NCBI GenBank assembly: GCA_945787525.1
Contig: CALZJC010000012.1
Coordinates: 1-21,992 of the forward strand
Direction: 5' to 3'
Source of the DNA: Thermoanaerobaculia bacterium
Lineage (GTDB): Bacteria > Acidobacteriota > Thermoanaerobaculia > Multivoradales > JAHEKO01
Length of the DNA: 21,992 nucleotides
Positions within the stretch are counted from its first letter, which is position 1; every line of letters starts with the position of its first letter. A program made the translations under genes and the position numbers. Below the pieces are notes generated by a model, which saw nothing but the letters and a program-made list of their open reading frames with translations, had not been told where the DNA came from and searched no databases. Positions 1-10,826 of the stretch are shown here, piece by piece.

Positions 1-4
1 CCGC

Positions 5-625
5 TCAGCACTCGATGTCGAAGATCGCGTCCACCAGCTTGGCGTCGCGATGCACGAAAGGCACCCCGAGCAGACGCGGCTTGCCGAACTCGATCTCGTA
101 GCGCAGCTGCTTCAGGGTGTCGGGCCTCTCCACCTCGCTGGCGATCAGCGCGTAGTGGGCCAGCTTCTTGGCGTCGCCCACGCCGTAGCGGCCACCCAGC
201 AGCCGCTCGCCCAGCTTCTCGCCGAGCTCGGGCAGCTTCTCGGTATAGCGGCGCACCAGGGTCGTCACCGCCGGCAGCGGCGCGTGGAAGGCCGGCACGG
301 CGAAGGTGCCCCGGCCGCCGGACGACTCCTGCTGGTCGCCGCCGAGAAAGAAGCTCATCAGGCCGCGAAAACCGCCGCCCGTGGCGTCGCGCTGGTGCAT
401 GGTGATCGTGGCCGGCAGCAGCCAGAACGGCCGGTAGAGCTCGACGGCGACGTTGGGCAGCGCCACGAAGGCGACCTCCATCGGCACCAGGCTCTTCTCG
501 GCGGCGGCGAACCGGTAGCCGTTGCGGCAGGCGGTGCAGTAGTAGACCACGTCCTCGCCGTCCGCCTTCACCGCCGCGCCGCAGCTCGGGCAGTCCAGCG
601 GCACCAGCTCGTAACCGGCCCTCAC
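5..625 (-). CDS. Zinc-ribbon protein, third paralog of the triad downstream of the SPFH gene (about 206 aa). Predicted start is GTG at 625..623, overlapping the upstream stop in a GTGA. N-terminal CPSCG…YYCTAC zinc ribbon; no obvious TM segment.
   Basis: The minus-strand frame ends …AIFDIEC* with a TGA at 7..5. The supplied 495-aa ORF is read-through. I chose the internal start because the upstream gene's TGA (624..622) overlaps GTG in the sequence GTGAGG. C-x2-C…C-x2-C motif and an ELYRPFWLL motif echoing PMWLFR/LPFYRV in the two upstream paralogs. Confidence 0.55.
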   Translation of the reverse strand: MRAGYELVPLDCPSCGAAVKADGEDVVYYCTACRNGYRFAAAEKSLVPMEVAFVALPNVAVELYRPFWLLPATITMHQRDATGGGFRGLMSFFLGGDQQESSGGRGTFAVPAFHAPLPAVTTLVRRYTEKLPELGEKLGERLLGGRYGVGDAKKLAHYALIASEVERPDTLKQLRYEIEFGKPRLLGVPFVHRDAKLVDAIFDIEC

Positions 626-1749
626 CCGTAGATCTCCGGTACCTTGCCGGCCATGAGCTCGCGCACCGCCTCCCGGCGGCGGCTTCTGCTGGCCAGGACC
701 CTGACCGCCTGGCCGAGGTTGACCTCCTTGTGCGCCCCGGTGCCCTCTATCACCACGCCGCCGTAGCGGAACTTGCGCCAGCCCCACCAGAGCGCCGCCA
801 GCAGCGGCAGCCCGACGAAAAGCAGCACCTCGAAGCTGGCCGCGATCTGCATCACGGTGGTGCCGACAAACAGCGCCGCCGCCTGGGTGAGCACCAGCAT
901 GGCGGCGCGAAAGAAGTCGTTGCCCGGCGCCTTGCCGTAGGCCAGCGAGCCGTCCTCGGCATCCACCAGCACCTGGTACGAGCGGTCCCTGAAGCGATAG
1001 CGCACGACCCACAACGGGTAGTAGATGACCGTCAGGCGCTCGCGCAGCGTCTGCAGGAACTTGAAGCGCACCGAGTGCAGACCGCTGGACGGGTCGGCCA
1101 AACGCCGGAACTGCTCGAGGGCCGCCTCGCGCACCTCGGTCTCGGAGCCGGTGGGTGGGAAGACCATGCCCAGCCGATCGAGAGCATCGCTGTCGAACGG
1201 CATTAGCCGATCGCCGCGCAGGTCGACCTTCTGGATGCCCCACTCGGCCACGTTCAGGGCCGGGTAGGTGCGATCGAAGATCTTCTCCGCCCGCCGCTCG
1301 ACGTCGACATAGTACGTGGTGGTGGTGCGGTTCTTGCCGCTGCCGGTAGTGCGCTGGCGCTTCTCGGTGCCGAGGGCAAAGCCGACGCAGTCCGCCTCGA
1401 CACGATAGAACGGCAGAAAGCTGAGGAACGCCTCGCCGATGCGCGCCGCGGTGCGCAGCTTGGGGTTCTTGACGATCCCCTTGGAGAGCCACTGGCGGGC
1501 GATCCCGCGGGCCTTCTCGGCGTCGATCTGGGGCTCGACGGCCAGCCGCCGGATGCCGACCTCACTGGTCGCCAGCAGCGGCGTCTCGCAGAACGGGCAC
1601 TCGACCACCCGCAGTCCGGCATCCACCTCGAGGGTGCCGCCGCAGTTGGGACAGGAGAGGCCGGTGACCCGCGAGGAGAGCCCGTCCTCGGCCACCGGCA
1701 CGATCTCCGGTGTGGGCTCGTCGGCGGCGTGCTCGAGCGGCTCGCTCAT
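622..1749 (-). CDS. Zinc-ribbon protein with C-terminal transmembrane helices, second paralog (about 375 aa). N-terminal CPNCGG…CPFC ribbon, about 150-aa central insertion, two C-terminal TM helices.
   Basis: ATG at 1749..1747 overlaps the upstream TGA (1748..1746) as ATGA. The supplied ORF start at 1767 is an in-frame upstream Met inside the previous gene. Shares EKARGIARQW…LPFYRV and PLWVVRYRFRDRSYQVLVDAEDG motifs with the 1746..2516 protein. Hydrophobic stretches FRAAMLVLTQAAALFVGTTVMQIA and VLLFVGLPLLAALWWGW. Confidence 0.65.
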   Translation of the reverse strand: MSEPLEHAADEPTPEIVPVAEDGLSSRVTGLSCPNCGGTLEVDAGLRVVECPFCETPLLATSEVGIRRLAVEPQIDAEKARGIARQWLSKGIVKNPKLRTAARIGEAFLSFLPFYRVEADCVGFALGTEKRQRTTGSGKNRTTTTYYVDVERRAEKIFDRTYPALNVAEWGIQKVDLRGDRLMPFDSDALDRLGMVFPPTGSETEVREAALEQFRRLADPSSGLHSVRFKFLQTLRERLTVIYYPLWVVRYRFRDRSYQVLVDAEDGSLAYGKAPGNDFFRAAMLVLTQAAALFVGTTVMQIAASFEVLLFVGLPLLAALWWGWRKFRYGGVVIEGTGAHKEVNLGQAVRVLASRSRRREAVRELMAGKVPEIYG

Positions 1750-2516
1750 ACTTTGCGCGTCACCCACCAGGCGAGGAACAGCAACGGCACCGCGGTGAGC
1801 CCGAAGACGAAGAGCTTGATCACCGGGTTGGTGAGGACAAAGCCCTCGATGGTAAACAGGATCAGTCCCAGGATCGCCACCAGAACATAGGGGCTCTCGG
1901 CCTTCTCGGGATAGACCGAGGCCATCACCGCGCCGGTCGAGCCGTCGACCAGCGCCTCGTAGTCACGTCCCTTGAAGCTGTAGCGGCAGCGCCACAGCGG
2001 TACCTGGACGAGCGCCGTCTCCTCGGGCTCACCCACGCCGCGCTGATCCAGCCAGCCCCGCGCGGTCTCTAGCGGGATGGTGGCGCCGAGCGCCTCCACC
2101 TCGCCGCTCTCGCCGGAGTACGGCTGCAGCTTGCCGGCCGGCACCTTGAGGTCGGCGAGCTGCGGGATCGGGGTCGGCGCCGCCGGCTCGACGTAGGTCT
2201 CCTCGCTGCCGCCCCGGCGGACCCGGAAGAGCCACATCGGGAAGGAGACCGCCCGCAGCGCGCCGAGCGAGCTCTTCTTGTCCAGATCCTTGACCGTTTC
2301 GTTGCCCGCCATCCAGCGCCGCAGCGCCGCTCGAGCCTCGTCGGCGCCGAGCAGCGGCGGCAACCGGTAGTGGTTGACCACCCCGCCGCGATCGACGAAC
2401 AGCGTCGCGTCGCAGTACTGACAGCGGAACAGCCGCCGGCCTGAGGCGAGTTGGTTCTCGCCGCCGCACTGGGTGCAGCGGATGACGTTGGCGGTGGCCG
2501 GGGACGGGCTGCTCAT
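1746..2516 (-). CDS. Zinc-ribbon protein with two C-terminal transmembrane helices, first paralog (256 aa). MSSPSPATANVIRCTQCGG…FRCQYCD.
   Basis: ATG at 2516..2514 preceded by AAGAG. The supplied 624-aa ORF fuses this gene to the SPFH gene through a stop-free intergenic stretch. C-x2-C…C-x2-C ribbon; EARAALRRWMAG…FPMWLFRV and PLWRCRYSFKGRDYEALVDGSTG motifs. C-terminal hydrophobic segments YVLVAILGLILFTIEGFVL and IKLFVFGLTAVPLLFLAWWV. Confidence 0.65.
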   Translation of the reverse strand: MSSPSPATANVIRCTQCGGENQLASGRRLFRCQYCDATLFVDRGGVVNHYRLPPLLGADEARAALRRWMAGNETVKDLDKKSSLGALRAVSFPMWLFRVRRGGSEETYVEPAAPTPIPQLADLKVPAGKLQPYSGESGEVEALGATIPLETARGWLDQRGVGEPEETALVQVPLWRCRYSFKGRDYEALVDGSTGAVMASVYPEKAESPYVLVAILGLILFTIEGFVLTNPVIKLFVFGLTAVPLLFLAWWVTRKV

Positions 2517-2526
2517 CTCTTGAACG

Positions 2527-2605
2527 GGGACAGGCAGCTCATTTCGGAGCGGCACGAAGCTCTCGCTCCTGGAGGACGGCCGTTGCGAAATGAGGTGCCT
2601 GTCCC
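2527..2605. repeat. Compound inverted repeat or RNA hairpin in the intergenic gap between the SPFH gene and the first zinc-ribbon gene. Twenty-bp arms with 1 mismatch, 39-nt spacer containing an inner GGAGCG/CGCTCC hairpin.
   Basis: Plus-strand 2527-2546 is gggacaggcagctcatttcg and 2586-2605 is cgaaatgaggtgcctgtccc, its reverse complement apart from one C/G. Inner repeat ggagcg (2546-2551) and cgctcc (2564-2569); CGGCCG palindrome at 2577-2582. No U-tract follows on the minus-strand mRNA. Confidence 0.6.
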
Positions 2606-2620
2606 TTGCGTGCGCGTGCG

Positions 2621-3551
2621 CTAGCCGGCGGCCTTGGTCCCGCAACCCGGGCAGAAGCGCGCCCCCTCGGGCAGCTTGTTGCCACACTGATGGCCCCGGG
2701 TCGCCCTGCATCGCCTCTTTCATCATCTGCGGCAGCATCATGCCCATGCCGGCGCCCATGCCGACCCCCAGCCCGGCGCCGACGCCGCTGCCGGTCTCAC
2801 CGCCCGACTGCTGCGCCGCGTCGCCCATCGCCCTGGCCGCCTTGAACTTGAGGTACTCGTTCATGTCGCCGACCGCCGCCATACCGGTGCGCTCGTCGAT
2901 CATCTTCTGGACCTCTTCCGGCGGCGTGATGGCGCCGAGGAAGAAATCCACCAGCTCGATGCCGTACTTGACAAAGTCGTCGCCGACCCTGGCCTTGAGG
3001 CCCATGCCGAGCTCGTCGTAGACCTTGGGCAGCTCGAAGATCGAGCTCAGGTTCTCGCCCAGGAGATCGGTCAGCCGGGCCACGATGACGTCCTTGAAAT
3101 AGCCCTCGACGCCGTCGGTGGTGTAGAGCCCCTGGGTGCCGACCACCGTATTGACGAACAGCTGCGGGTTGTCGATGCGCACGGCGAACTTGCCGAAGGC
3201 GCGCAGCCGCACCATGGCCAGCTCCTTGTCGCGGTAGACGACCGGCTCCTTGGTGCCCCACTTGAGGTCGATGAAGGTCTTGCTGGAGGTGAACACCACC
3301 GCCGCCTGGAAAGGCGACTTGCCCTTGAACGGCAGGCCCAGGACCTTGGTCAGAAACGGCAGGTTCTGGGTGGCCAGGGTGTGGCGCCCCGGACCGAAGG
3401 TGTCGAGCGCTTTGCCGTCGCGGAAAAAGACCGCCTGCTGGCTCTCCTCCACGACCAGCTGGCTGCCGAGCTGGATCGCCTTGGTGCCCTGCGACGGCCA
3501 CCGCGCCACCATGGTCTGTCCGGTGGGGTCGACGTACTGGATGACTTCCAT
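2621..3551 (-). CDS. SPFH/Band-7 domain protein of the YdjI/COG4260 type, with a glycine/methionine-rich linker and a C-terminal zinc-ribbon tail. The coding sequence is interrupted by an apparent +1 frameshift near 2690-2700.
   Basis: ATG at 3551..3549 with a strong purine-rich RBS (GAGAGGGGAAAGAAAC). N-terminus MEVIQYVDPTGQTMVARWPSQG…GSQLVVEESQQAVFFRDGKALDTFGPGRHTLATQNLPFL matches the conserved SPFH/COG4260 core. GSGVGAGLGVGMGAGMGMM linker. In the SPFH frame there is no stop until 1746. One nucleotide further on, the frame reads QCGNKLPEGARFCPGCGTKAAG* with a TAG at 2623..2621. Confidence 0.8.
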
Positions 3552-3568
3552 GTTTCTTTCCCCTCTCT

Positions 3569-4096
3569 TCAGCCGTCGGTCTTGACGACGCCGCTGATGA
3601 CGTTCTTGCGCTCGGCCCACTTGTCGCCGAGAGTCGAGATGTGTGCCAGTGCCTGATTGCAGGCCTCCTGGGCGTCGCCCTGGCCGGGCAGCGGGATGGC
3701 GGCGACGTCGCCGGCCAGCCGCGCGATGTCCTCGACCAGCGACAGGTCGAACTGGTAGATCGCGTCGAGCTCGGGCTCGTTGATCTTGACCACGTCGAAG
3801 AAACCGCTCTGGCCGTAGTCGGCAAAACGGATCGCCTGCGACAGGCCGTCGAGGCGCCCGTCCATGCGGCCGAACAGGTAGAGGGCGCCGATCTGCCCGG
3901 CGTCGGTGTAGGCCTGCGCCTTACCCCGAACGGCCTTCTTGATCTGCCCCAGCTCCTTGGCCAGGTGCTCGCGCTGCAGCTTGTCCACCTCGCGCCGCAG
4001 CTCGCGGTCCTGGAAGCCCCGGAAGCCCGGGATCTTGTCCATCAGGCGCTCGAGCCAGTTGCGCCGCTCTTGCGCCTCTTCGAATCCTGTCGTCAT
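3569..4096 (-). CDS. Hypothetical protein, 175 aa; charged and helical N-terminal half (coiled-coil-like). First gene of the SPFH operon.
   Basis: ATG at 4096..4094 with GGAGGA 6 nt upstream. Its stop (3571..3569) lies 17 nt before the SPFH start. I recognise no family; the sequence is MTTGFEEAQERRNWLERLMDKIPGFRGFQDRELRREVDKLQREHLAKELGQIKKA…. Confidence 0.6.
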   Translation of the reverse strand: MTTGFEEAQERRNWLERLMDKIPGFRGFQDRELRREVDKLQREHLAKELGQIKKAVRGKAQAYTDAGQIGALYLFGRMDGRLDGLSQAIRFADYGQSGFFDVVKINEPELDAIYQFDLSLVEDIARLAGDVAAIPLPGQGDAQEACNQALAHISTLGDKWAERKNVISGVVKTDG

Positions 4097-4181
4097 TCGT
4101 AGTCCTCCTGCCGGGGCTCTCTACGGCGATGGAGCCGGCGTTATTCGCATCGAGGCCCGGATCGGCCGAAGACCGAAGATA
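4097..4181 (-). promoter_or_regulatory. Intergenic region between the VanZ-like gene and the SPFH operon. It is the presumed promoter/operator of the SPFH operon and contains a tandem heptamer CCGAAGA x2 (4166-4179) abutting a GATATC palindrome.
   Basis: An 85-nt non-coding gap sits upstream of a gene with a strong SD. The direct repeat ccgaaga ccgaaga is visible on the plus strand. I could not identify a convincing sigma70 -35/-10 pair. Confidence 0.25.
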
Positions 4182-4754
4182 TCACCCGGCGGCGGCCCGA
4201 TCGGCGCGCCGGGCCTCGGCCAGGGCGGCCAGGGCGCCGACGGCCATGACCGCCGCCAGCACATTGAGCCACACGTCGACCCGGTCGTAGTACCGGTTGG
4301 GCAGCAGGTACTGGATGCCCTCGTCGATCCAGCCGGCGAGACCGCTCACCAGGACGGCCAGCAGCCCTGGAAGCGCCGACCAGCGCATGCCGGCGCCGGG
4401 CCGGCGGCGCTCCAGCAGCGCGGCGTAGACCAGTCCGGCGAGCAGACCGTACTCGAGCAGATGAAAGCGCTCCTCGGGCATCCTGATCGGCCACAGGACC
4501 CCCAGATAGAGCACCCCGAACAGCGCCAGAACGGCGATCTCGCGCCGTCCCGGTGAGCGCGCCAGGCACCAGCGCAGGACGACCGCCGCCACCACCAGGA
4601 AAAGGGCGCCGATCGAGACGCGCAGCAGGCCGTGGTCGCGCAGCCAATTGGCCAGCGGACGGACCGAGTACAGCGACGCGTAGATCGCCGCGAGCAGACC
4701 GCCGGCCCCGAACCAGAGCCGGCGTTCGCGAGCGGATCGGACCGGCAGGGACAT
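4182..4754 (-). CDS. VanZ-like family integral membrane protein (190 aa).
   Basis: Four or five hydrophobic helices. C-terminal motif GWIDEGIQYLLPNRYYDRVDVWLNVLA matches the VanZ-family E-x2-Q…P-x-R…D…N signature. Confidence 0.6.
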   Translation of the reverse strand: MSLPVRSARERRLWFGAGGLLAAIYASLYSVRPLANWLRDHGLLRVSIGALFLVVAAVVLRWCLARSPGRREIAVLALFGVLYLGVLWPIRMPEERFHLLEYGLLAGLVYAALLERRRPGAGMRWSALPGLLAVLVSGLAGWIDEGIQYLLPNRYYDRVDVWLNVLAAVMAVGALAALAEARRADRAAAG

Positions 4755-4819
4755 CGGCCCCGAGTCTACCTGCGAGGGACCTCTGTCGCCGCCGCTGCCC
4801 CGCTACAATCGTGCTCGCC
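4755..4819. promoter_or_regulatory. Divergent promoter region between the VanZ-like gene (minus) and the DUF354 gene (plus). TACAAT -10-like hexamer at 4804-4809, only 2-11 nt before the candidate GTG starts, which suggests a leaderless mRNA.
   Basis: Plus-strand cgcTACAATcgtgctcgccGTGcgg. There is no SD before either GTG (4811 or 4820). A TAGACT -10-like hexamer lies on the minus strand just upstream of the VanZ-like ATG. Confidence 0.25.
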
Positions 4820-5857
4820 GTGCGGCTGCTGCTCGACATCACCCACCCGGCCCACCTGCACTTCTTCCGCCACCTGGTGACGAGGATGCGGCGGGAGGGA
4901 CACGAGGTCTATCTGGCCGGGCGGCACAAGGACGTCCTGCTCGAGCTGGCGGCCGGCTACGGCCTCGTGCTCGACGCCTTCGGCCGCGCCCGGCCGGGGC
5001 TGTTCAGCCTGGGTCGCGAGATGGTGGCGCGCCAGACGCGTCTCGTGCGCATCATTCGCCGCTTCCGGCCGCACGCCATGATGGCCGTCGCCGGCACCTT
5101 CATCGCTCTGCCGGGCTGGTTGAAGCGCATCCCGACCTACGTCTTCTACGACAGCGAGCACGCCACCGTCTCCAACCTGCTGTCCTACCCGTTCGCCACC
5201 TGCGTCTACGTGCCGCGCTGCTATCTGGGGTCGATCCGCTGGCGGCACGAGCGCTACGACGGCTACCAGGAGCTGGCCTATCTCCACCCGGACCGGTTCA
5301 CTCCCGACCCGTCGGTGCTGGCCGAGGCCGGCCTGGCGCCGGGCGAGCCGTTCACCCTGGTGCGCTTCGTCGCCTGGGCGGCCGGCCACGACATCGGCAA
5401 GGCAGGGCTCGGCCTGGAGCAGAAAGTAGACGCGGTGCGCCGGCTCGGTCGCCACGGGCGGGTCGTCATCTCGACCGAGGGCGAGCTGCCGGACGAGCTC
5501 GAGTCGATGCGGCTGCGGCTCGAGGTGACGCGGATCCACCACCTCATGGCCCACGCCGCGCTCGTCTTCGGCGAGGGGGCGACCATGATGTCCGAGGCGG
5601 CGGTCCTCGGCGTGCCCAGCGTCTATGTCAACCCGCTGACCGCCGGAACCCTGGAGGAGCAGGAGCGGCAATACGGAATTCTGTTCGGCTTCCGGCCGGA
5701 CGACTTCGAGGCGGCCGTGGTCAAGGCGGAGTCGATCCTCGCCGCTCCCGCTGCCGAGCGCTGGCGCGCCATCGGGCGACGCATCGCCGACGAGAAGATC
5801 GACGTCACCGAGCTGCTCTACCGGGTCGCCACCGAGCGACCCTACGCCCGGGCATGA
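4820..5857 (+). CDS. DUF354 family protein (predicted GT-B/epimerase-like fold, glycosyltransferase-associated), about 345 aa.
   Basis: N-terminal VRLLLDITHPAHLHFFRHLVTRMRREGHEVYLAGRHKD matches the DUF354 hallmark DITHP.H..FF…GHEV. The start is GTG at 4820 (or 4811); the supplied ORF start at 4553 lies antisense inside the VanZ-like gene. Stop TGA at 5855-5857. Confidence 0.6.
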   Translation: MRLLLDITHPAHLHFFRHLVTRMRREGHEVYLAGRHKDVLLELAAGYGLVLDAFGRARPGLFSLGREMVARQTRLVRIIRRFRPHAMMAVAGTFIALPGWLKRIPTYVFYDSEHATVSNLLSYPFATCVYVPRCYLGSIRWRHERYDGYQELAYLHPDRFTPDPSVLAEAGLAPGEPFTLVRFVAWAAGHDIGKAGLGLEQKVDAVRRLGRHGRVVISTEGELPDELESMRLRLEVTRIHHLMAHAALVFGEGATMMSEAAVLGVPSVYVNPLTAGTLEEQERQYGILFGFRPDDFEAAVVKAESILAAPAAERWRAIGRRIADEKIDVTELLYRVATERPYARA

Positions 5858-5899
5858 AGGTCGGCCGGCGGTGGCCCGAGCGAGCTGCCGACGGTCAAG
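5858..5899. terminator. Convergent intergenic region between the DUF354 gene (plus) and the GT gene (minus), with a weak 8-bp stem (1 mismatch) at 5860-5867 and 5885-5892. A possible bidirectional terminator with no U/A tract.
   Basis: The stem is gtcggccg … ctgccgac; there is also a direct repeat gacggtc x2 at 5890-5896 and 5904-5910. Confidence 0.2.
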
Positions 5900-7052
5900 C
5901 TAGGACGGTCGGGCGACGCTTGCGCCCAGCAGCTTCTCGTAGAGGGCAAGCCACGAGCCGATGACGTGCTCCCAGCCCGACAGCCGCCAGATGACTTCGG
6001 CGTTGCGGCGGCTCGCGGCCCGATGCTCGTCCAGACGCTCGAGCACCGAGATGAGCGTCGCGCCGAGCGACCCGATGTCGTCCACCCTGACCAGGTAGGC
6101 ACCGCGCTCCTCCAGCACCCTGTACGGGAGCCAGCGGCCGGCGATCACGATGCTGCCGGCGAAGAGATGCTCCTGCATCGCGCCGGAGAGCGCATCGCTC
6201 TTGTGCACGTTGATCATCACGTCGGCGGCCAGCCGCAGGCGAGCCAGGTCGGCGTCGCTCAGCGGCTGCTCGAAGAGCCGGTACGCCAGTCGTGAGCCGG
6301 TCAGGGCATGCCTGACCCGAGCCCGCGTGTCGGACCAGCCGTAGGTCAGCGGAAAGACAAAGACACACTCGGGAGGCAGGCGTGCTTCGACGCTATGGAG
6401 AGCGTCGAGGATCTTGTCGTGCTGCACGACCGGTGAAGCACTGTGGCCACAGACCACGATCCGCGCCTCGCTGGGCAGGTCCAGCGCGCGCCGCCACTGG
6501 CGCCTCGATTCCGCCTCGCGAAGCCGGCGCACCTCCTCCAGAATGGACAGGCCGAAACGGCACAGATGGATCTTCTCCTCCGGGGTGTCGGGATAGACGC
6601 GCAGGAAATCGTCGCGCACCTCGGGGTTGGAAAAGGTCAGCGCGTCGGCAGCTCGAAACAGCCCCTGCTTGAAGGTCCTTTCGAGGCGCCCGGCCTGGTG
6701 GAGATCGCTGCCCCAGATGCTCACTGCCAGCCTCTTCGCCAGCCTGCGGATGAGCGGCAGGTAGGGTCGATAGTAGGCGCCGGCAAAGTGCAGGTGGGCG
6801 ATCTCGTAACGGCCCGGGATCTCGAGGAGGGTGAGCGGCGCGCGCAGCCGCTTGTAGCCGAGGTGGAGCCCCGAAAGCTGGCTCAGGAAGCGGTCGAGAC
6901 GCGAGGACCGAAGAAGCTCGCGCCCGTCATCGGTCTCGAGGGAGCGGTCAAAGAGGTAGAGGCGGTCCAAAGCGACGCCCTGCCGCCGCAGGCGGGCGGC
7001 CAGCGAATCGATCAGGAAGCTCTGCTGGGACCGGATCAGCAGGACTCGCAAG
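5900..7052 (-). CDS. Glycosyltransferase-like protein, GT-B fold (GT4-like), about 383 aa.
   Basis: The likely start is TTG at 7052..7050 (LRVLLIRSQ…), with a GGGGG RBS, 15 nt after the upstream stop. The supplied ORF start at 7156 is S/T-rich read-through overlapping the upstream gene. The C-terminal half has an E-x7-G-like nucleotide-sugar binding region: ADVMINVHKSDALSGAMQEHLFAGSIVIAG. Confidence 0.5.
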
Positions 7053-7067
7053 GCGCCCCCGGGGCGA

Positions 7068-7766
7068 TCACTCGATGAAGCGCTCCTGATAGGCCCGCTG
7101 AGCCTGCTCGTAGTCCTCCACGACTCCGATGTCGAGCCAGTACTCGCGGAGGACATATTTGGTGACGGGCATCCCGTTTTGGAGCATCTCCTGGATGAGA
7201 CGGTCGATTCCGTAGTAGGTATTGTCCGGGATGAGCTCGAAGACGGCGGGCTTCAGCACATAGATGCCCGCGAGAACCTCGAAGTTGAAGTCCGGCTTCT
7301 CTTCGACGCCGGTGACGTAGATGCCGTCCGATTCGATGTTGCCGAAGCGAAAGGGCGTCGTGAGCACCTTGGTGGCGATGGTCAGCCGGGAGTCCGGCAG
7401 TCCGGCGGCGAACGCGTAGATCTTGCTCAGGTCCGCCTCGGTCAGGATGTCGCCGTTCATGAGGATGAACGGCTCCGTGAGCCGCTCCTTGATCAGACTG
7501 AGAGGGCCGCATGTTCCCAGCGGCTCGCTCTCGACGCTGTAGTTCAAAACCACGCCGTACCTGCTGCCATCACCGAAATAGGAACGAACGTAGTCCGCCT
7601 TGTAGTTGAGCGCCAGGAAGATCTCGTCGAACCCGTGCTCCCGCAGCAGGCCGATCTGGATCTCCAGGAGCGCCTTCTCACCCAGCGGCAACATCGGTTT
7701 GGGAATGATGGCGGTCAACGGGCGGAGCCGGACTCCGAGCCCACCGGCCAGGACCACGGCCTTCAT
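7068..7766 (-). CDS. Sugar-1-phosphate nucleotidyltransferase (NTP_transferase family), 232 aa.
   Basis: N-terminal MKAVVLAGGLGVRLRPLTAIIPKPMLPLG matches the canonical G-G-x-G-x-R-L-x-P-L-T…PKPM pyrophosphorylase signature. ATG at 7766 overlaps the upstream TGA as ATGA. Confidence 0.8.
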   Translation of the reverse strand: MKAVVLAGGLGVRLRPLTAIIPKPMLPLGEKALLEIQIGLLREHGFDEIFLALNYKADYVRSYFGDGSRYGVVLNYSVESEPLGTCGPLSLIKERLTEPFILMNGDILTEADLSKIYAFAAGLPDSRLTIATKVLTTPFRFGNIESDGIYVTGVEEKPDFNFEVLAGIYVLKPAVFELIPDNTYYGIDRLIQEMLQNGMPVTKYVLREYWLDIGVVEDYEQAQRAYQERFIE

Positions 7767-8386
7767 GACGACTCGCCCCGGAAGACCCCGGACTCGGTCA
7801 CGCTGCAGCGCACGACGCTGCCCGCGCTGACCAGCACTCCGGAGGTCAATGAGACCCCATGGAACAGTGCCGCGCCACAGCCGACGAACACCTCGTCGCC
7901 GAGCCGGCAGCTTCCGTTGACCACCGCGCCGGTGGCCACGTGGCAGTGGTCACCGACGACGGCATCGTGCTCGACGGTTGCGCCGGTGTTGATGATGCAG
8001 TTGGCACCGACCCGGGCGGACGCGTTGACGGTGGCATGATGCATGACGATTGTGCCAGCTCCGAGATCTGCGTGGCGCGAGACGTGGGCTCGCGGCGACA
8101 CGATCGCCGGGAAGCCCCCTCCGAGCGCGACCACCCGCTCGAACAGTTCGCGGCGGCGGGCGGCCGTCCTCACCTGGCCGATGGTGATCAGGAAGTTGCT
8201 GTAGCGAGTCGACAGGCTCGGATAGTCGTCGTCGGTTGCGACCACCGGGTAGCCGAGGACCTCCTGCCCCAACATCTCGCGCCTGTCGACGACCCCGGCG
8301 ATCCGGTATTCCCCGGCCTCCTCGATCACATCGACGCACGCCCGGCAATGCCCGCCACCGCCGATGAGGATCAGCTCCGCAGTCAC
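7763..8386 (-). CDS. NeuD/PglD-family sugar acetyltransferase (left-handed beta-helix, hexapeptide repeat), 207 aa.
   Basis: N-terminal Rossmann-like ILIGGGGHCRACVDVI, then hexapeptide repeats (GAGTIVMHHATVNASARVGANCIINTGATVEHDAVVGDHCHVATGAVVNGSCRLGDEVFVGCGA). GTG start at 8386 with a GGTAGGA RBS. Confidence 0.8.
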   Translation of the reverse strand: MTAELILIGGGGHCRACVDVIEEAGEYRIAGVVDRREMLGQEVLGYPVVATDDDYPSLSTRYSNFLITIGQVRTAARRRELFERVVALGGGFPAIVSPRAHVSRHADLGAGTIVMHHATVNASARVGANCIINTGATVEHDAVVGDHCHVATGAVVNGSCRLGDEVFVGCGAALFHGVSLTSGVLVSAGSVVRCSVTESGVFRGESS

Positions 8387-8509
8387 AGTCCTACCCCGCT
8401 GGGGATGTTGATGGGGCGATCCACGACATTCTGAAACAGAGCGCTTGTCATTTCTGCACCGTGGGGCGACCTACGATACCTTGAGTCCGGCCATGGTCTC
8501 CTGCGGATC

Positions 8510-8552
8510 AGCGCGTCTGACTCTCGGCCGGTCCAACGCGCTCACCTGGCGC
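8510..8552 (-). terminator. GC-rich hairpin (7-bp stem AGCGCGT/ACGCGCT, 19-nt loop with a CGGCCG palindrome) immediately 3' of the last gene of the dcw transcript. Candidate terminator or stabiliser; no U-tract.
   Basis: Plus-strand agcgcgt at 8510-8516 pairs with acgcgct at 8546-8552. The stop codon of the 8542..9531 gene lies within or adjacent to the right arm. Confidence 0.25.
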
Positions 8553-9531
8553 CACGGTCGCGGCTGCGGAGCCGACGATCGCCCAGCAGCCCGACGCCTC
8601 CGAACGGCAGTGCCAGGGCTACCATCACGATGAAGTGGGCCACCCGCAGCAGGCCCGACAACAGTATCGCCTCGCCCACCGTCACACCCAGCTCCGGGCC
8701 CAGCAGCCCGAAGAGCAGCTCGCGCACACCGACGTTACCCGGCGTCACGACGAGGTAGTTGCTGATCTGCAGCACGGCATAGAGAACCAGGACCGCGGCC
8801 AGCCCGACCTGAGCCCCGAGCGCCAGAAAGGCGAGGCTGAAGCTCGTGCAGGAGACCGCCACGCTGACCAGCCCGAGACCCAGCACAGCCGCGCCATAGC
8901 GCAGGTCGGCAAAGCTGCGCACCGCCACCTCCAGGACCCGCGCCAGACGATCGTGCACCCAGGCGAGGCGGCGTTGGCGCAGCCACCCGGCGCGCGCTAC
9001 CCAATCGAGCACGACCGGCACGGCAGCCAGGGTCACTGCCGAGGTCGCCACCGCTGCCGCGGCCGGTAGCCCGCCGAGGCGCATGCCGGGGCGCAGCAGC
9101 CAGATCGTGATCCCTGCCAGCAGGAGATTGACCGTGGTGCCAACCCAGGCGAAGGCGACAAACGAACCGAGGTAGTCCGAGTAAGCGATGCCGTGGACGG
9201 CCTTCAGCTGCACCCCCCGATAGACGTTTCCGAGCTGCGGCACCAGGGTGCTGAGGAACCTGCCGAGCACAAACAGCCGCAGCCAGGGCAGGAAACCGAT
9301 CCGCTGCCCCGAGGCCTTTTCGAGGATCACCTGATAGCGCAGGCTGTCGAGCGCGAAGTAGCCCAGCTGTAGCAGCAGCAGCCCGACCGCGTGCAGCGGC
9401 CGGATCTCGAGCAACACCTCGAGCTCTGCCGGATTGCGTGCGAAGAAGCGGACGATCCAGGCCAGGCATACTGCCAGCACCAGCCAGGACAGGCCGCTCT
9501 TGAGCCTCTTGGGCAGCGGGCGTTCGGTCAA
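8542..9531 (-). CDS. Polytopic membrane protein (about 8 TM), candidate flippase-like LPG-synthase-TM/UPF0104 family member. Translationally coupled to ftsZ.
   Basis: 329 aa with eight hydrophobic helices and a conserved-looking [17 protein letters not shown] (P-x-G-x-G-x-x-E) motif near the C-terminus. ATG 9531..9529 overlaps the ftsZ TGA 9530..9528 as ATGA. Confidence 0.55.
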
Positions 9532-10826
9532 TCCATCTGCTTGCGGAGCACGGTCGGGATGTCGAAGTCGTCGACGTTGGACCAGTTTGGACCGTAGCCG
9601 TTGGGATCCTCGTTCTGGGTCTGGGCGATCACCTTGCGATAGAAGGGGATCTCCTCGGGCTCCTCGGTGATCGGCTCGACTTGCGGCGCGGCCGGCGCCC
9701 CCGGCCGCGCGGGCTCGGCGGTCTGGAACGGCTCCGGCTCGAGGGCGGGCGCCGGCTGCTGACGGGGAGTGAAGAACGGCTCATCCTCCATCGCCGCCCT
9801 GGCCTCGGCTGCCGCCGGCTGCCCAGCCGGCTGTTTGAAGCCGGTGGCGATCACCGTCACCTTCATCTCCTCTTCCAGATCCTCGTCGATAACCATGCCG
9901 GAGATGATGTTGGCAACCGGGTCTACGGCCTCGGCGATCACCTGGGCCGCCTCGGCCACTTCGTGCAGGGTCAGGTCGGCGCCGCCAGAGATATTGATCA
10001 ACACGCCCTTGGCGCCGACAATCGAGGTCTCCTCCAGCAGCGGCGAGGAGATCGCCCGCTGCGCCGCCTCCTGGGCGCGACTCTCGCCCTTGGCGACGCC
10101 GGTGCCCATCAGCGCCATGCCCATGCCGGTCATGATCGACTTGACGTCGGCGAAGTCGACGTTGACCTCGCCCGGCACGGTGATCAGGTCGCTGATGCCC
10201 TGTACCGCCTGACGCAGCACGTCATCGGCGATGCGGAAGGCCTCGCTCAGAGGTGTACCCCGCTCGACGAAGTTGAGCAGGCGCTCGTTGGGGATGGTGA
10301 TCAACGTGTCGACCGCCCCGCGCAGCTCTTCGAGCCCCCGCTCCGCGAGCTCCATGCGGCGGCGGCCCTCGAAGACGAACGGCTTGGTCACCACCGCCAC
10401 GGTGAGAGCGCCAATCTCGGCCGCCAGGGAGGCGATGATCGGCGCCGCACCGGTGCCGGTGCCGCCGCCGAGTCCGGCGGTGAGAAAGACCATGTCCGCC
10501 CCCTGAAGCAGCTCGAGCATGCGCTCGGTGTCCTCGAGAGCCGACTTGCGGCCGACCTCCGGGTCGCCGCCGGCTCCCAGCCCGCGGGTCAGGGCCTGGC
10601 CAAGCTGTTGCTTGGTGCCGGCGCGGCACTTGCGCAGCGCCTGCAGGTCGGTGTTGGCGGCCACGAACTCGATGCCCCGCATGCGGGCGTCGATCATCCG
10701 GTTGACCGCGTTGCCGCCGCCGCCGCCGATGCCGATCACCTTGATCTTCGCCGGCAGCATGTCGGCCGTGTCGTCGAGCGTGATCGGGAGTTTGCTCTCC
10801 GCTTCGTGGTCTTCGAAAAGAATCAT
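9528..10826 (-). CDS. ftsZ: Cell division protein FtsZ (432 aa).
   Basis: [13 protein letters not shown] tubulin signature, T7 loop region, about 100-aa P/A/E-rich linker and a C-terminal [11 protein letters not shown] peptide. ATG with a GGGGGAA RBS. Confidence 0.97.

Follow-up and report, generated by a model that had tools for sequence, protein, structure and literature searches.

The studied SPFH protein of the COG4260 type is YdjI (SamI) of Bacillus subtilis, whose gene stands last in the operon pspA-ydjGHI (pspA-samGHI). It comprises a soluble SPFH domain, a low-complexity region and a C-terminal zinc finger or ribbon, and has no membrane anchor of its own (bioRxiv 10.64898/2026.02.06.704340). 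The membrane proteins YdjG and YdjH, products of the same operon, recruit YdjI to the membrane, and YdjI is needed to localise PspA (PMC8581546; bioRxiv 10.64898/2026.02.06.704340).

A gene of this type occurs in a MAG of the Thermoanaerobaculia (Acidobacteriota), on the 21,992-nt stretch of DNA analysed here, referred to below as the window. Its intact allele, which is carried by a sister contig, has the same domain architecture as YdjI, and in this contig and in close orthologs the SPFH domain, the low-complexity linker and the ribbon are all encoded in a single frame. The window allele itself departs from SamI: it has no linker, and its ribbon is encoded in the +1 frame. The surroundings of the gene also bear comparison with the Bacillus operon. 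On its 3' side are two partner-like genes whose products, with an N-terminal CxxC...CxxC and a hydrophobic C-terminus, would by their architecture be the counterparts of YdjG and YdjH; YdjG, too, begins ...KCPNC, to judge from a primer sequence (PMC8581546). The SPFH gene comes first in the window, however, whereas it is last in Bacillus, and, unlike the Bacillus operon, the window has no PspA domain beside the SPFH gene that Pfam or NCBIfam could detect. Architecture and the literature together thus suggest a resemblance to the pspA-ydjGHI (samGHI) membrane-stress module; Pfam, NCBIfam and PADLOC assign no family to the neighbours in the window, and PADLOC gives no hit for any of the six proteins of the cluster.

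Results

The window and its close orthologs share a conserved gene order, comprising DUF354, a 190-aa gene, a 175-aa gene, the SPFH gene, and genes for proteins of 256, ~379 and 206 aa. The 175-aa gene immediately upstream (3569..4096, minus strand) has no Pfam match, and its NCBIfam match to LIMLP_15305 is sub-threshold (34.8 bits against a cut-off of 210); it accompanies the SPFH gene in all close relatives inspected (loci L084-L087 and the sister contig, L089). The interval between ftsZ and DUF354 differs from one locus to another. In L084 (5371-7620) it holds a methyltransferase and a Polysacc_synt/MurJ-like flippase that have no match in the window, and in the window (5850-9530), as in the sister contig, it holds other genes, including LPG_synthase_TM, PglD_N/hexapeptide and NTP_transferase genes. 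This interval looks like a variable surface-polysaccharide islet beside the dcw (mur-ftsQAZ) cluster.

The SPFH gene begins with an ATG at 3551 on the minus strand. Its 5' part (2695..3551, minus strand) consists of codons 1-285 plus 2 nt, ending ...ATG CAG GGC GAC CCG GG, and every base of it is the same in the sister contig. The first ~280 residues form a clear SPFH domain. Band_7_1 (PF13421) matches residues 17-225 over profile positions 3-210 of 211, with 191.8 bits against a cut-off of 24 (E=1.6e-56); the whole domain is thus above the curated Pfam cut-off, making the protein a member of this family, and the same match is recovered from the 601-aa ORF described below. The SPFH frame reads ...MMKEAMQGDPGPSVWQQAARGG... 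and, past ...MMKEAMQGDPG, goes on as PSVWQQAARGG... until its first stop at 1746. The resulting ORF has 601 aa if counted from the ATG at 3551 and 624 aa if a GTG farther upstream is taken as the start. Read in the +1 frame, the DNA gives ...GHQCGNKLPEGARFCPGCGTKAAG*, the stop being a TAG at 2623..2621.

What the +1 frame encodes is a zinc-ribbon remnant, HQCGNKLPEGARFCPGCGTKAAG, which together with its TAG occupies 2621..2692 on the minus strand and is recognised by translation, tblastn and Pfam; the tail of an ortholog (residues 344-366), used as a tblastn query, finds it in frame -2 at 2692-2624. The remnant has no Cys1, only the GC (2694-2693) of the TGC codon for this residue being left. 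Its match to Zn_Ribbon_1 scores 28.0 bits against a cut-off of 25 and is confined to profile positions 4-22 of 23, and in place of the four-ligand CxxC...CxxC of this family (PF13240) the window offers xHQC...CPGC, with three Cys. Judged on sequence, this is a genuine though incomplete ribbon and no chance match, because its Zn_Ribbon_1 score is above the cut-off and its 23 residues are identical to the intact tail of the sister allele. A start codon of its own was considered for the remnant and rejected, there being no ATG, GTG or TTG in its frame after the preceding stops.

These observations agree with much of what a sequence-only reading of this DNA had described. Translation confirms both the stop-free SPFH frame running into the next gene and the ribbon tail lying one nucleotide over, and the gene is indeed a COG4260-type SPFH gene with its zinc ribbon in the +1 frame. 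The CCCC run reported on the plus strand at 2694-2697 is present, and removal of one base from it joins the two frames to give ...MQGDPGHQCGNKLPEGARFCPGCGTKAAG*, the tail quoted in that reading having omitted 'AAG'. The joined tail has three Cys only, as was stated, and its match to the Zn_Ribbon_1 profile lacks the first Cys.

Comparison with orthologs shows that far more than one base separates the two frames. A protein search gave thousands of relatives, the best 120 of which were inspected for length and domain content; all of these 120 are 328-392 aa long, and 118 have a precomputed ribbon domain. The ten best representatives with a tail of the 'HQCGNK/HECGNK' type (P0001-P0010) are 91-96% identical in amino acid sequence over the aligned SPFH part (~91% of the query) and have 361-367 aa, compared with 309 aa for the earlier joined model. 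In the ortholog alignment MMKEAMQ..GG is followed by a low-complexity linker of ~45-60 residues, rich in Ala, Gly, Pro and Glu, and then by the almost invariant A-F-C-H-Q-C-G-x-K-L-P-x-x-A-x-F-C-P-x-C-G-T-K. The window passes straight from ...QGDPG to HQCG, with no linker between. A DNA alignment of six related loci places the gap between GACCCGGG and GCCATCAGTG, and the window gene is 155-173 nt shorter than each of these relatives, the difference always being 2 mod 3. Measured between fixed anchors, the linker is 181-199 nt long in close relatives and 163 nt in the sister contig, the latter being the 26 nt of the window plus 137 nt.

A wider survey took in the genomes of 80 species representatives, annotated for the most part as Thermoanaerobaculia or Acidobacteriota, with ~75 complete copies of the SPFH gene. 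All of the complete copies are in frame to the end except one, L060 (MAG MFD03066.bin.2.238, contig_8717, 3001-4010), where a simple 1-nt indel occurs near residue 250. Like the window, L060 has an SPFH gene with its C-terminal tail in another frame. L060 retains its whole sequence, however, with everything downstream of the indel (GLGVGMGAG..., linker, SHOCT tail) continuing in frame +1, whereas the window has lost the whole linker; L060 was probably broken by a point frameshift, or appears broken through a homopolymer error. The C-terminal tail of the SPFH family is dimorphic across Thermoanaerobaculia species (loci L004-L083; for example L034, 3001-4014), some copies ending in a zinc ribbon and others in a SHOCT domain preceded by a comparable low-complexity linker; the SHOCT sequence ...NPVAGRLRQLKGLLDEGLISQEEFNAKRQKLLEEM scores 35.6 bits against a Pfam cut-off of 27.

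The nature of the break is revealed by the sister contig, which was reached by an exact-sequence look-up of the 175-aa protein encoded upstream. This NCBI MAG contig (CALZHI010001040.1 of GCA_945787085.1; L088/L089) has 9,988 nt and is 99.9% identical to the window. Aligned by blastn with window positions 1-9779, it shows 11 mismatches and a sole gap, of 137 nt, at 2694|2695, where two gap-free segments abut with an offset difference of 137. There is one mismatch in the 7,085 nt of 2695-9779 (at 8661) and there are ten in the 2,694 nt of 1-2694. Six of the 11 fall in window positions 1-65, at the end of the contig; such a cluster is typical of a contig that ends in a strain-variant branch and indicates that several co-existing strains are present in the data.

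The 137 extra nucleotides (7086-7222 of the sister contig) begin with CGGCCAGACTCCGCC and end with GCCGCCTTCT; they have 81% GC, and 137 is 2 mod 3. In the intact sequence the left breakpoint is GACCCGGG|CGGCC... and the right one ...CCTTCT|GCCATC. The junction in the window (2694..2695, at the meeting point of the two blastn segments) accordingly reads GACCCGGG|GCCATCAG; it is blunt, with zero overlap and no microhomology. The lost bases extend from base three of the first Gly codon in the linker up to and including base one of the Cys1 codon, and with them have gone a 43-residue Ala/Pro/Gly/Glu linker, a Phe and the first zinc ligand. Because 137 is 2 mod 3, the remaining 23 ribbon codons are shifted to +1, and because the first base of the Cys1 codon was taken the fourth ligand is missing and the tail has three Cys. 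The G4/C4 run at 2694-2697 is itself a product of the junction (GGG|G) and is not present in the intact allele. When the 137 nt are restored, the gene encodes an intact 355-aa protein, ...MQGDPG-GQTPPAAPPAGTPAAAAAAATGSAAEGDEADAGAVEESAPAGAAFC-HQCGNKLPEGARFCPGCGTKAAG*, with FCHQC...CPGC and a full Zn_Ribbon_1 match (profile positions 1-22 of 23, 32.5 bits). Relative to the Band_7_1 plus Zn_Ribbon_1 (PF13421 + PF13240) proteins of Thermoanaerobaculia, the window gene therefore has the same SPFH part (base-identical to that of the sister contig) and the same neighbourhood; it differs in having 137 nt fewer than the sister contig and 155-173 nt fewer than the others, with the ribbon out of frame and Cys1 gone.

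How old is this event? The ribbon remnant and the hairpin that follows it are base-identical in the sister contig. Compared with six more distant relatives, the remnant carries two substitutions private to the lineage of the window, neither of which changes an amino acid in the ribbon frame, whereas both do so in the frame now read; the SPFH domain has nine private changes in 840 nt, seven of them synonymous. Since the changes in the remnant are synonymous only in the ribbon frame, the ribbon has been kept by selection in its own frame practically up to the present, and the event is thus very recent or artefactual. The rest of the window is clean. By tblastn, ten other genes (MurC, FtsQ, FtsA, FtsZ, DUF354, and the 190-, 175-, 256-, 379- and 206-aa genes) align over their full length and in a single frame with their orthologs in L084, and only the SPFH gene is split between frames.

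Downstream of the junction, the read-through PSVWQQAARGGALLPGLRDQGRRLAHAHARDRHLISQRPSSRSESFVPLRNELPVPVQE (2517..2694, minus strand) covers the out-of-frame ribbon and what was formerly the intergenic region. At 70% GC, 59% of 60-codon windows on the minus strand are free of stops, so that an open stretch of this kind is unremarkable and no more than chance would give. It leads into the downstream gene of 256 aa (1746..2516, minus strand; ATG at 2516), which is intact and in frame with the SPFH gene. Its product, with an N-terminal CxxC...CxxC, a hydrophobic C-terminus and no Pfam family, gives a full-length, single-frame tblastn match with its ortholog in L084. The best 120 homologs of this protein are all stand-alone, with 245-327 aa, and no natural fusion to an SPFH protein occurs among them. 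The 601-aa ORF (1746..3551, minus strand) is accordingly a mechanical fusion of the SPFH part, junk and the downstream protein, recorded by a gene caller as protein P0242 (NCBI); Pfam finds Band_7_1 in it but not the ribbon. Exact look-up of the 601-aa fusion and of the 256-aa protein in a gene-position index returned nothing on record. Within a single 90%-identity cluster, P0242 bridges two unrelated families, SPFH proteins of 355-368 aa and downstream proteins of 255-269 aa. This mixed cluster is a side-effect, in annotation and clustering, of the broken gene.

Just after the ribbon TAG lies an intergenic hairpin (inverted repeat I1; 2527..2605, minus strand) with 27-nt arms that are 89% complementary. 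The RNA fold of the 141-nt region has an energy of -60.9 kcal/mol (z = -3.05), and ribosomes translating the broken allele would have to pass it. Equivalent hairpins are found at five loci (window 2499-2605, minus strand; L084 11115-11215; L085 4628-4735; L086 1675-1745; L087 2243-2312). The structure is conserved among these close relatives, with compensatory changes in L084 and L085, and five of its pairs hold through changes on both sides; no U-tract is present, and Rfam has no family for it. At two of the loci, L086 and L087, the region around the start codon of the downstream gene (GAAATGAG...GTCCCC) itself serves as the 3' arm, so that folding would hide the ATG. The other three (window, L084, L085) use a near-copy of this region as the 3' arm instead (direct repeat 2525-2545 / 2499-2519, 86%), with the real ATG 26-35 nt further on. 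The role of the hairpin may lie in translational coupling or in regulation of the downstream gene.

Discussion

Almost certainly, the frameshift was left behind when 137 nt were deleted from the hyper-GC stretch that encodes the low-complexity linker of a YdjI/SamI-type SPFH gene. It had previously been attributed to the G4/C4 run, as a one-base length error, in which case the true product would be the 309-aa joined protein, where MQGDPG is followed at once by a ribbon that has degenerated to three Cys. Deleting one G does produce a continuous ORF, and L060 provides a true 1-nt frameshift of such a kind in a relative. A homopolymer error, however, leaves all orthologous sequence in place, with a difference of 1-2 nt in the run, whereas here 137 nt, not 1 nt, separate the window from a sister that is 99.9% identical, and the run in question was made by the junction. 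Every relative, moreover, has at least ~24 linker residues and FC ahead of the second Cys, and L060 keeps all of its downstream sequence, which the window does not. An in-frame deletion from GCCA to GCCA, giving an in-frame short allele with a GACCCGGG-GGCCATCAG-type sequence, would have to be combined with a 1-nt loss, so that two events would be needed. A one-base slip is therefore scarcely credible. Programmed +1 ribosomal frameshifting, which would join the SPFH domain to the ribbon in a product spanning ...MQGDPGHQCGNK... (GDPGHQCGNK), can effectively be excluded. In its favour, the ribbon is in the +1 frame, as is the downstream domain of prfB-type genes, and lacks a start codon; GGG-C could also, on inspection, permit weak slippage of tRNA-Gly. 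Against this, the sister contig and all close relatives, read at the DNA level, encode the tail in frame, and the conservation of the shift at the same site that programmed frameshifting requires is absent from the ~75 complete relatives, the six closest loci and the sister contig. Unlike prfB-type genes, the window has a site made by a deletion junction, and inspection of GAC CCG GGG CCA shows no in-frame stop and no obvious slippery signal, rare-codon stall or correctly spaced SD-like stimulator, the only strong hairpin starting ~90 nt downstream. Rfam gives no hit anywhere in the window, hence no frameshift element, and the joined product would be without the linker and one zinc ligand, Cys1.

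There remains the broader class of explanation put forward by the sequence-only reading, a pseudogene or a sequencing or assembly error, and this was right. As something that would count against its interpretation, that reading had named read evidence of a 3-nt-compatible sequence at the site (a simple assembly error); in substance such a sequence comes from the sister contig, and not from sequencing reads of the assembly that holds the window. That the extra 137 nt are instead an insertion artefact of the sister contig would be implausible, given the sequences of all the orthologs.

Is the deletion, then, present in living cells? We judge the chances to be about even that it is a genuine, very recent, strain-level allele. 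The linker would in that case be a hot spot for indels, and an out-of-frame deletion would have knocked out the ribbon in an allele not yet purged; the cell would make no useful tail, or a fusion of SPFH domain, junk and downstream protein, and the functional form in the population would be the 355-aa intact allele of the sister contig. The free variation in linker length among close relatives does point to a high real rate of indels at this place. Across six relatives, no word longer than 8 nt is shared between the breakpoint neighbourhoods and no direct repeat longer than 15 nt occurs in the linker, leaving nothing to explain an assembly collapse. With neither a long shared word nor a repeat, k-mer collapse cannot make the junction, and in a short-read graph assembly the junction would have to be in the reads. 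Similarly, the clean genes elsewhere and the lack of Ns or of any other gap over the 9.8 kb compared imply that the assembly is not error-prone. On the other hand, the deletion is found in one assembly only; the sole other frame-broken copy, L060, is broken at a different site, and the 11-member protein cluster contains no second fusion. Since the deleted copy is unique among its relatives, a real allele would stand in opposition to strong purifying selection. Replication slippage, too, less typically leaves a blunt deletion lacking microhomology. A scan of IMG/VR for the junction gave no match; a conserved 32-mer that lies 24 nt ahead of the junction in the window matched only one JGI metagenome contig (L003), which carries the linker, and a scan of GTDB representatives gave no copy of the window, the best match being 95% identical and intact.

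The other possibility, to which we give a somewhat less than even chance, is that the cells carry the intact 355-aa gene and that its 81%-GC, strain-variable linker was lost in assembly or library preparation. Contig ends might have been abutted at a coverage gap or strain bubble, length variants might have collapsed in a consensus, or a polymerase might have skipped the structured, GC-rich segment. Consistent with such a loss, a 99.9%-identical contig holds the intact sequence, the missing piece is approximately the whole of a low-complexity, strain-variable tract that is hard to assemble, the ribbon remnant is untouched, and the six mismatches in window positions 1-65 point to strain heterogeneity in the data. 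The density of mismatches also changes at the junction (1/7085 compared with 10/2694; Fisher p = 2e-5), an effect that is smaller when the cluster in the first 65 nt is left out (4/2629; p = 0.02); a seam between separately assembled pieces would look alike. When the intact allele is folded as DNA, its outermost stem, GGCGGC/GCCGCC (7084-7089 / 7212-7217), closes around nearly the deleted bases (7086-7222). This is a weak lead, since folds across this tract are driven by GC content and fare no better than shuffles (z = -1.5 in L084, -0.64 in the sister contig), with no specially stable hairpin spanning the deleted DNA. Nor is 81% GC over 137 nt more than moderately extreme in a 70%-GC genome, and this tract posed no difficulty to the sister assembly. 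The absence of any repeat or k-mer overlap from which a de Bruijn assembler could create the junction, and of Ns or further indels, again weighs against an artefact.

If the deletion is real, the SPFH domain is intact and the ribbon lost, and translation would run through 59 junk codons, including the hairpin, crossing ...GDPGPSVWQQAAR... before entering the 256-aa protein. It is very unlikely, though conceivable, that the 601-aa ORF is then a working protein which tethers the soluble SPFH scaffold covalently to its presumed membrane partner. Were this so, the N-terminal CxxC...CxxC of the partner, ~70 residues past the junction, would come to lie at about the position of the lost ribbon, and a one-step fusion would have been caught in the act.

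Our conclusion is that the window carries an ordinary copy of a gene of a known family that has been disrupted or mis-assembled. The case does illustrate that an apparent homopolymer frameshift in raw sequence can be the scar of a far larger deletion, the missing zinc ligand here being the clue. A further consequence is that the 601-aa fusion ORF, which glues two unrelated families together, is now in a public protein collection. In MAGs, both assembly and annotation merit a check at the low-complexity linkers of SPFH-ribbon proteins. For the organism itself the biological weight of the finding is small: the gene is well conserved, a single copy of it is broken or mis-assembled, and the population also contains the intact allele.
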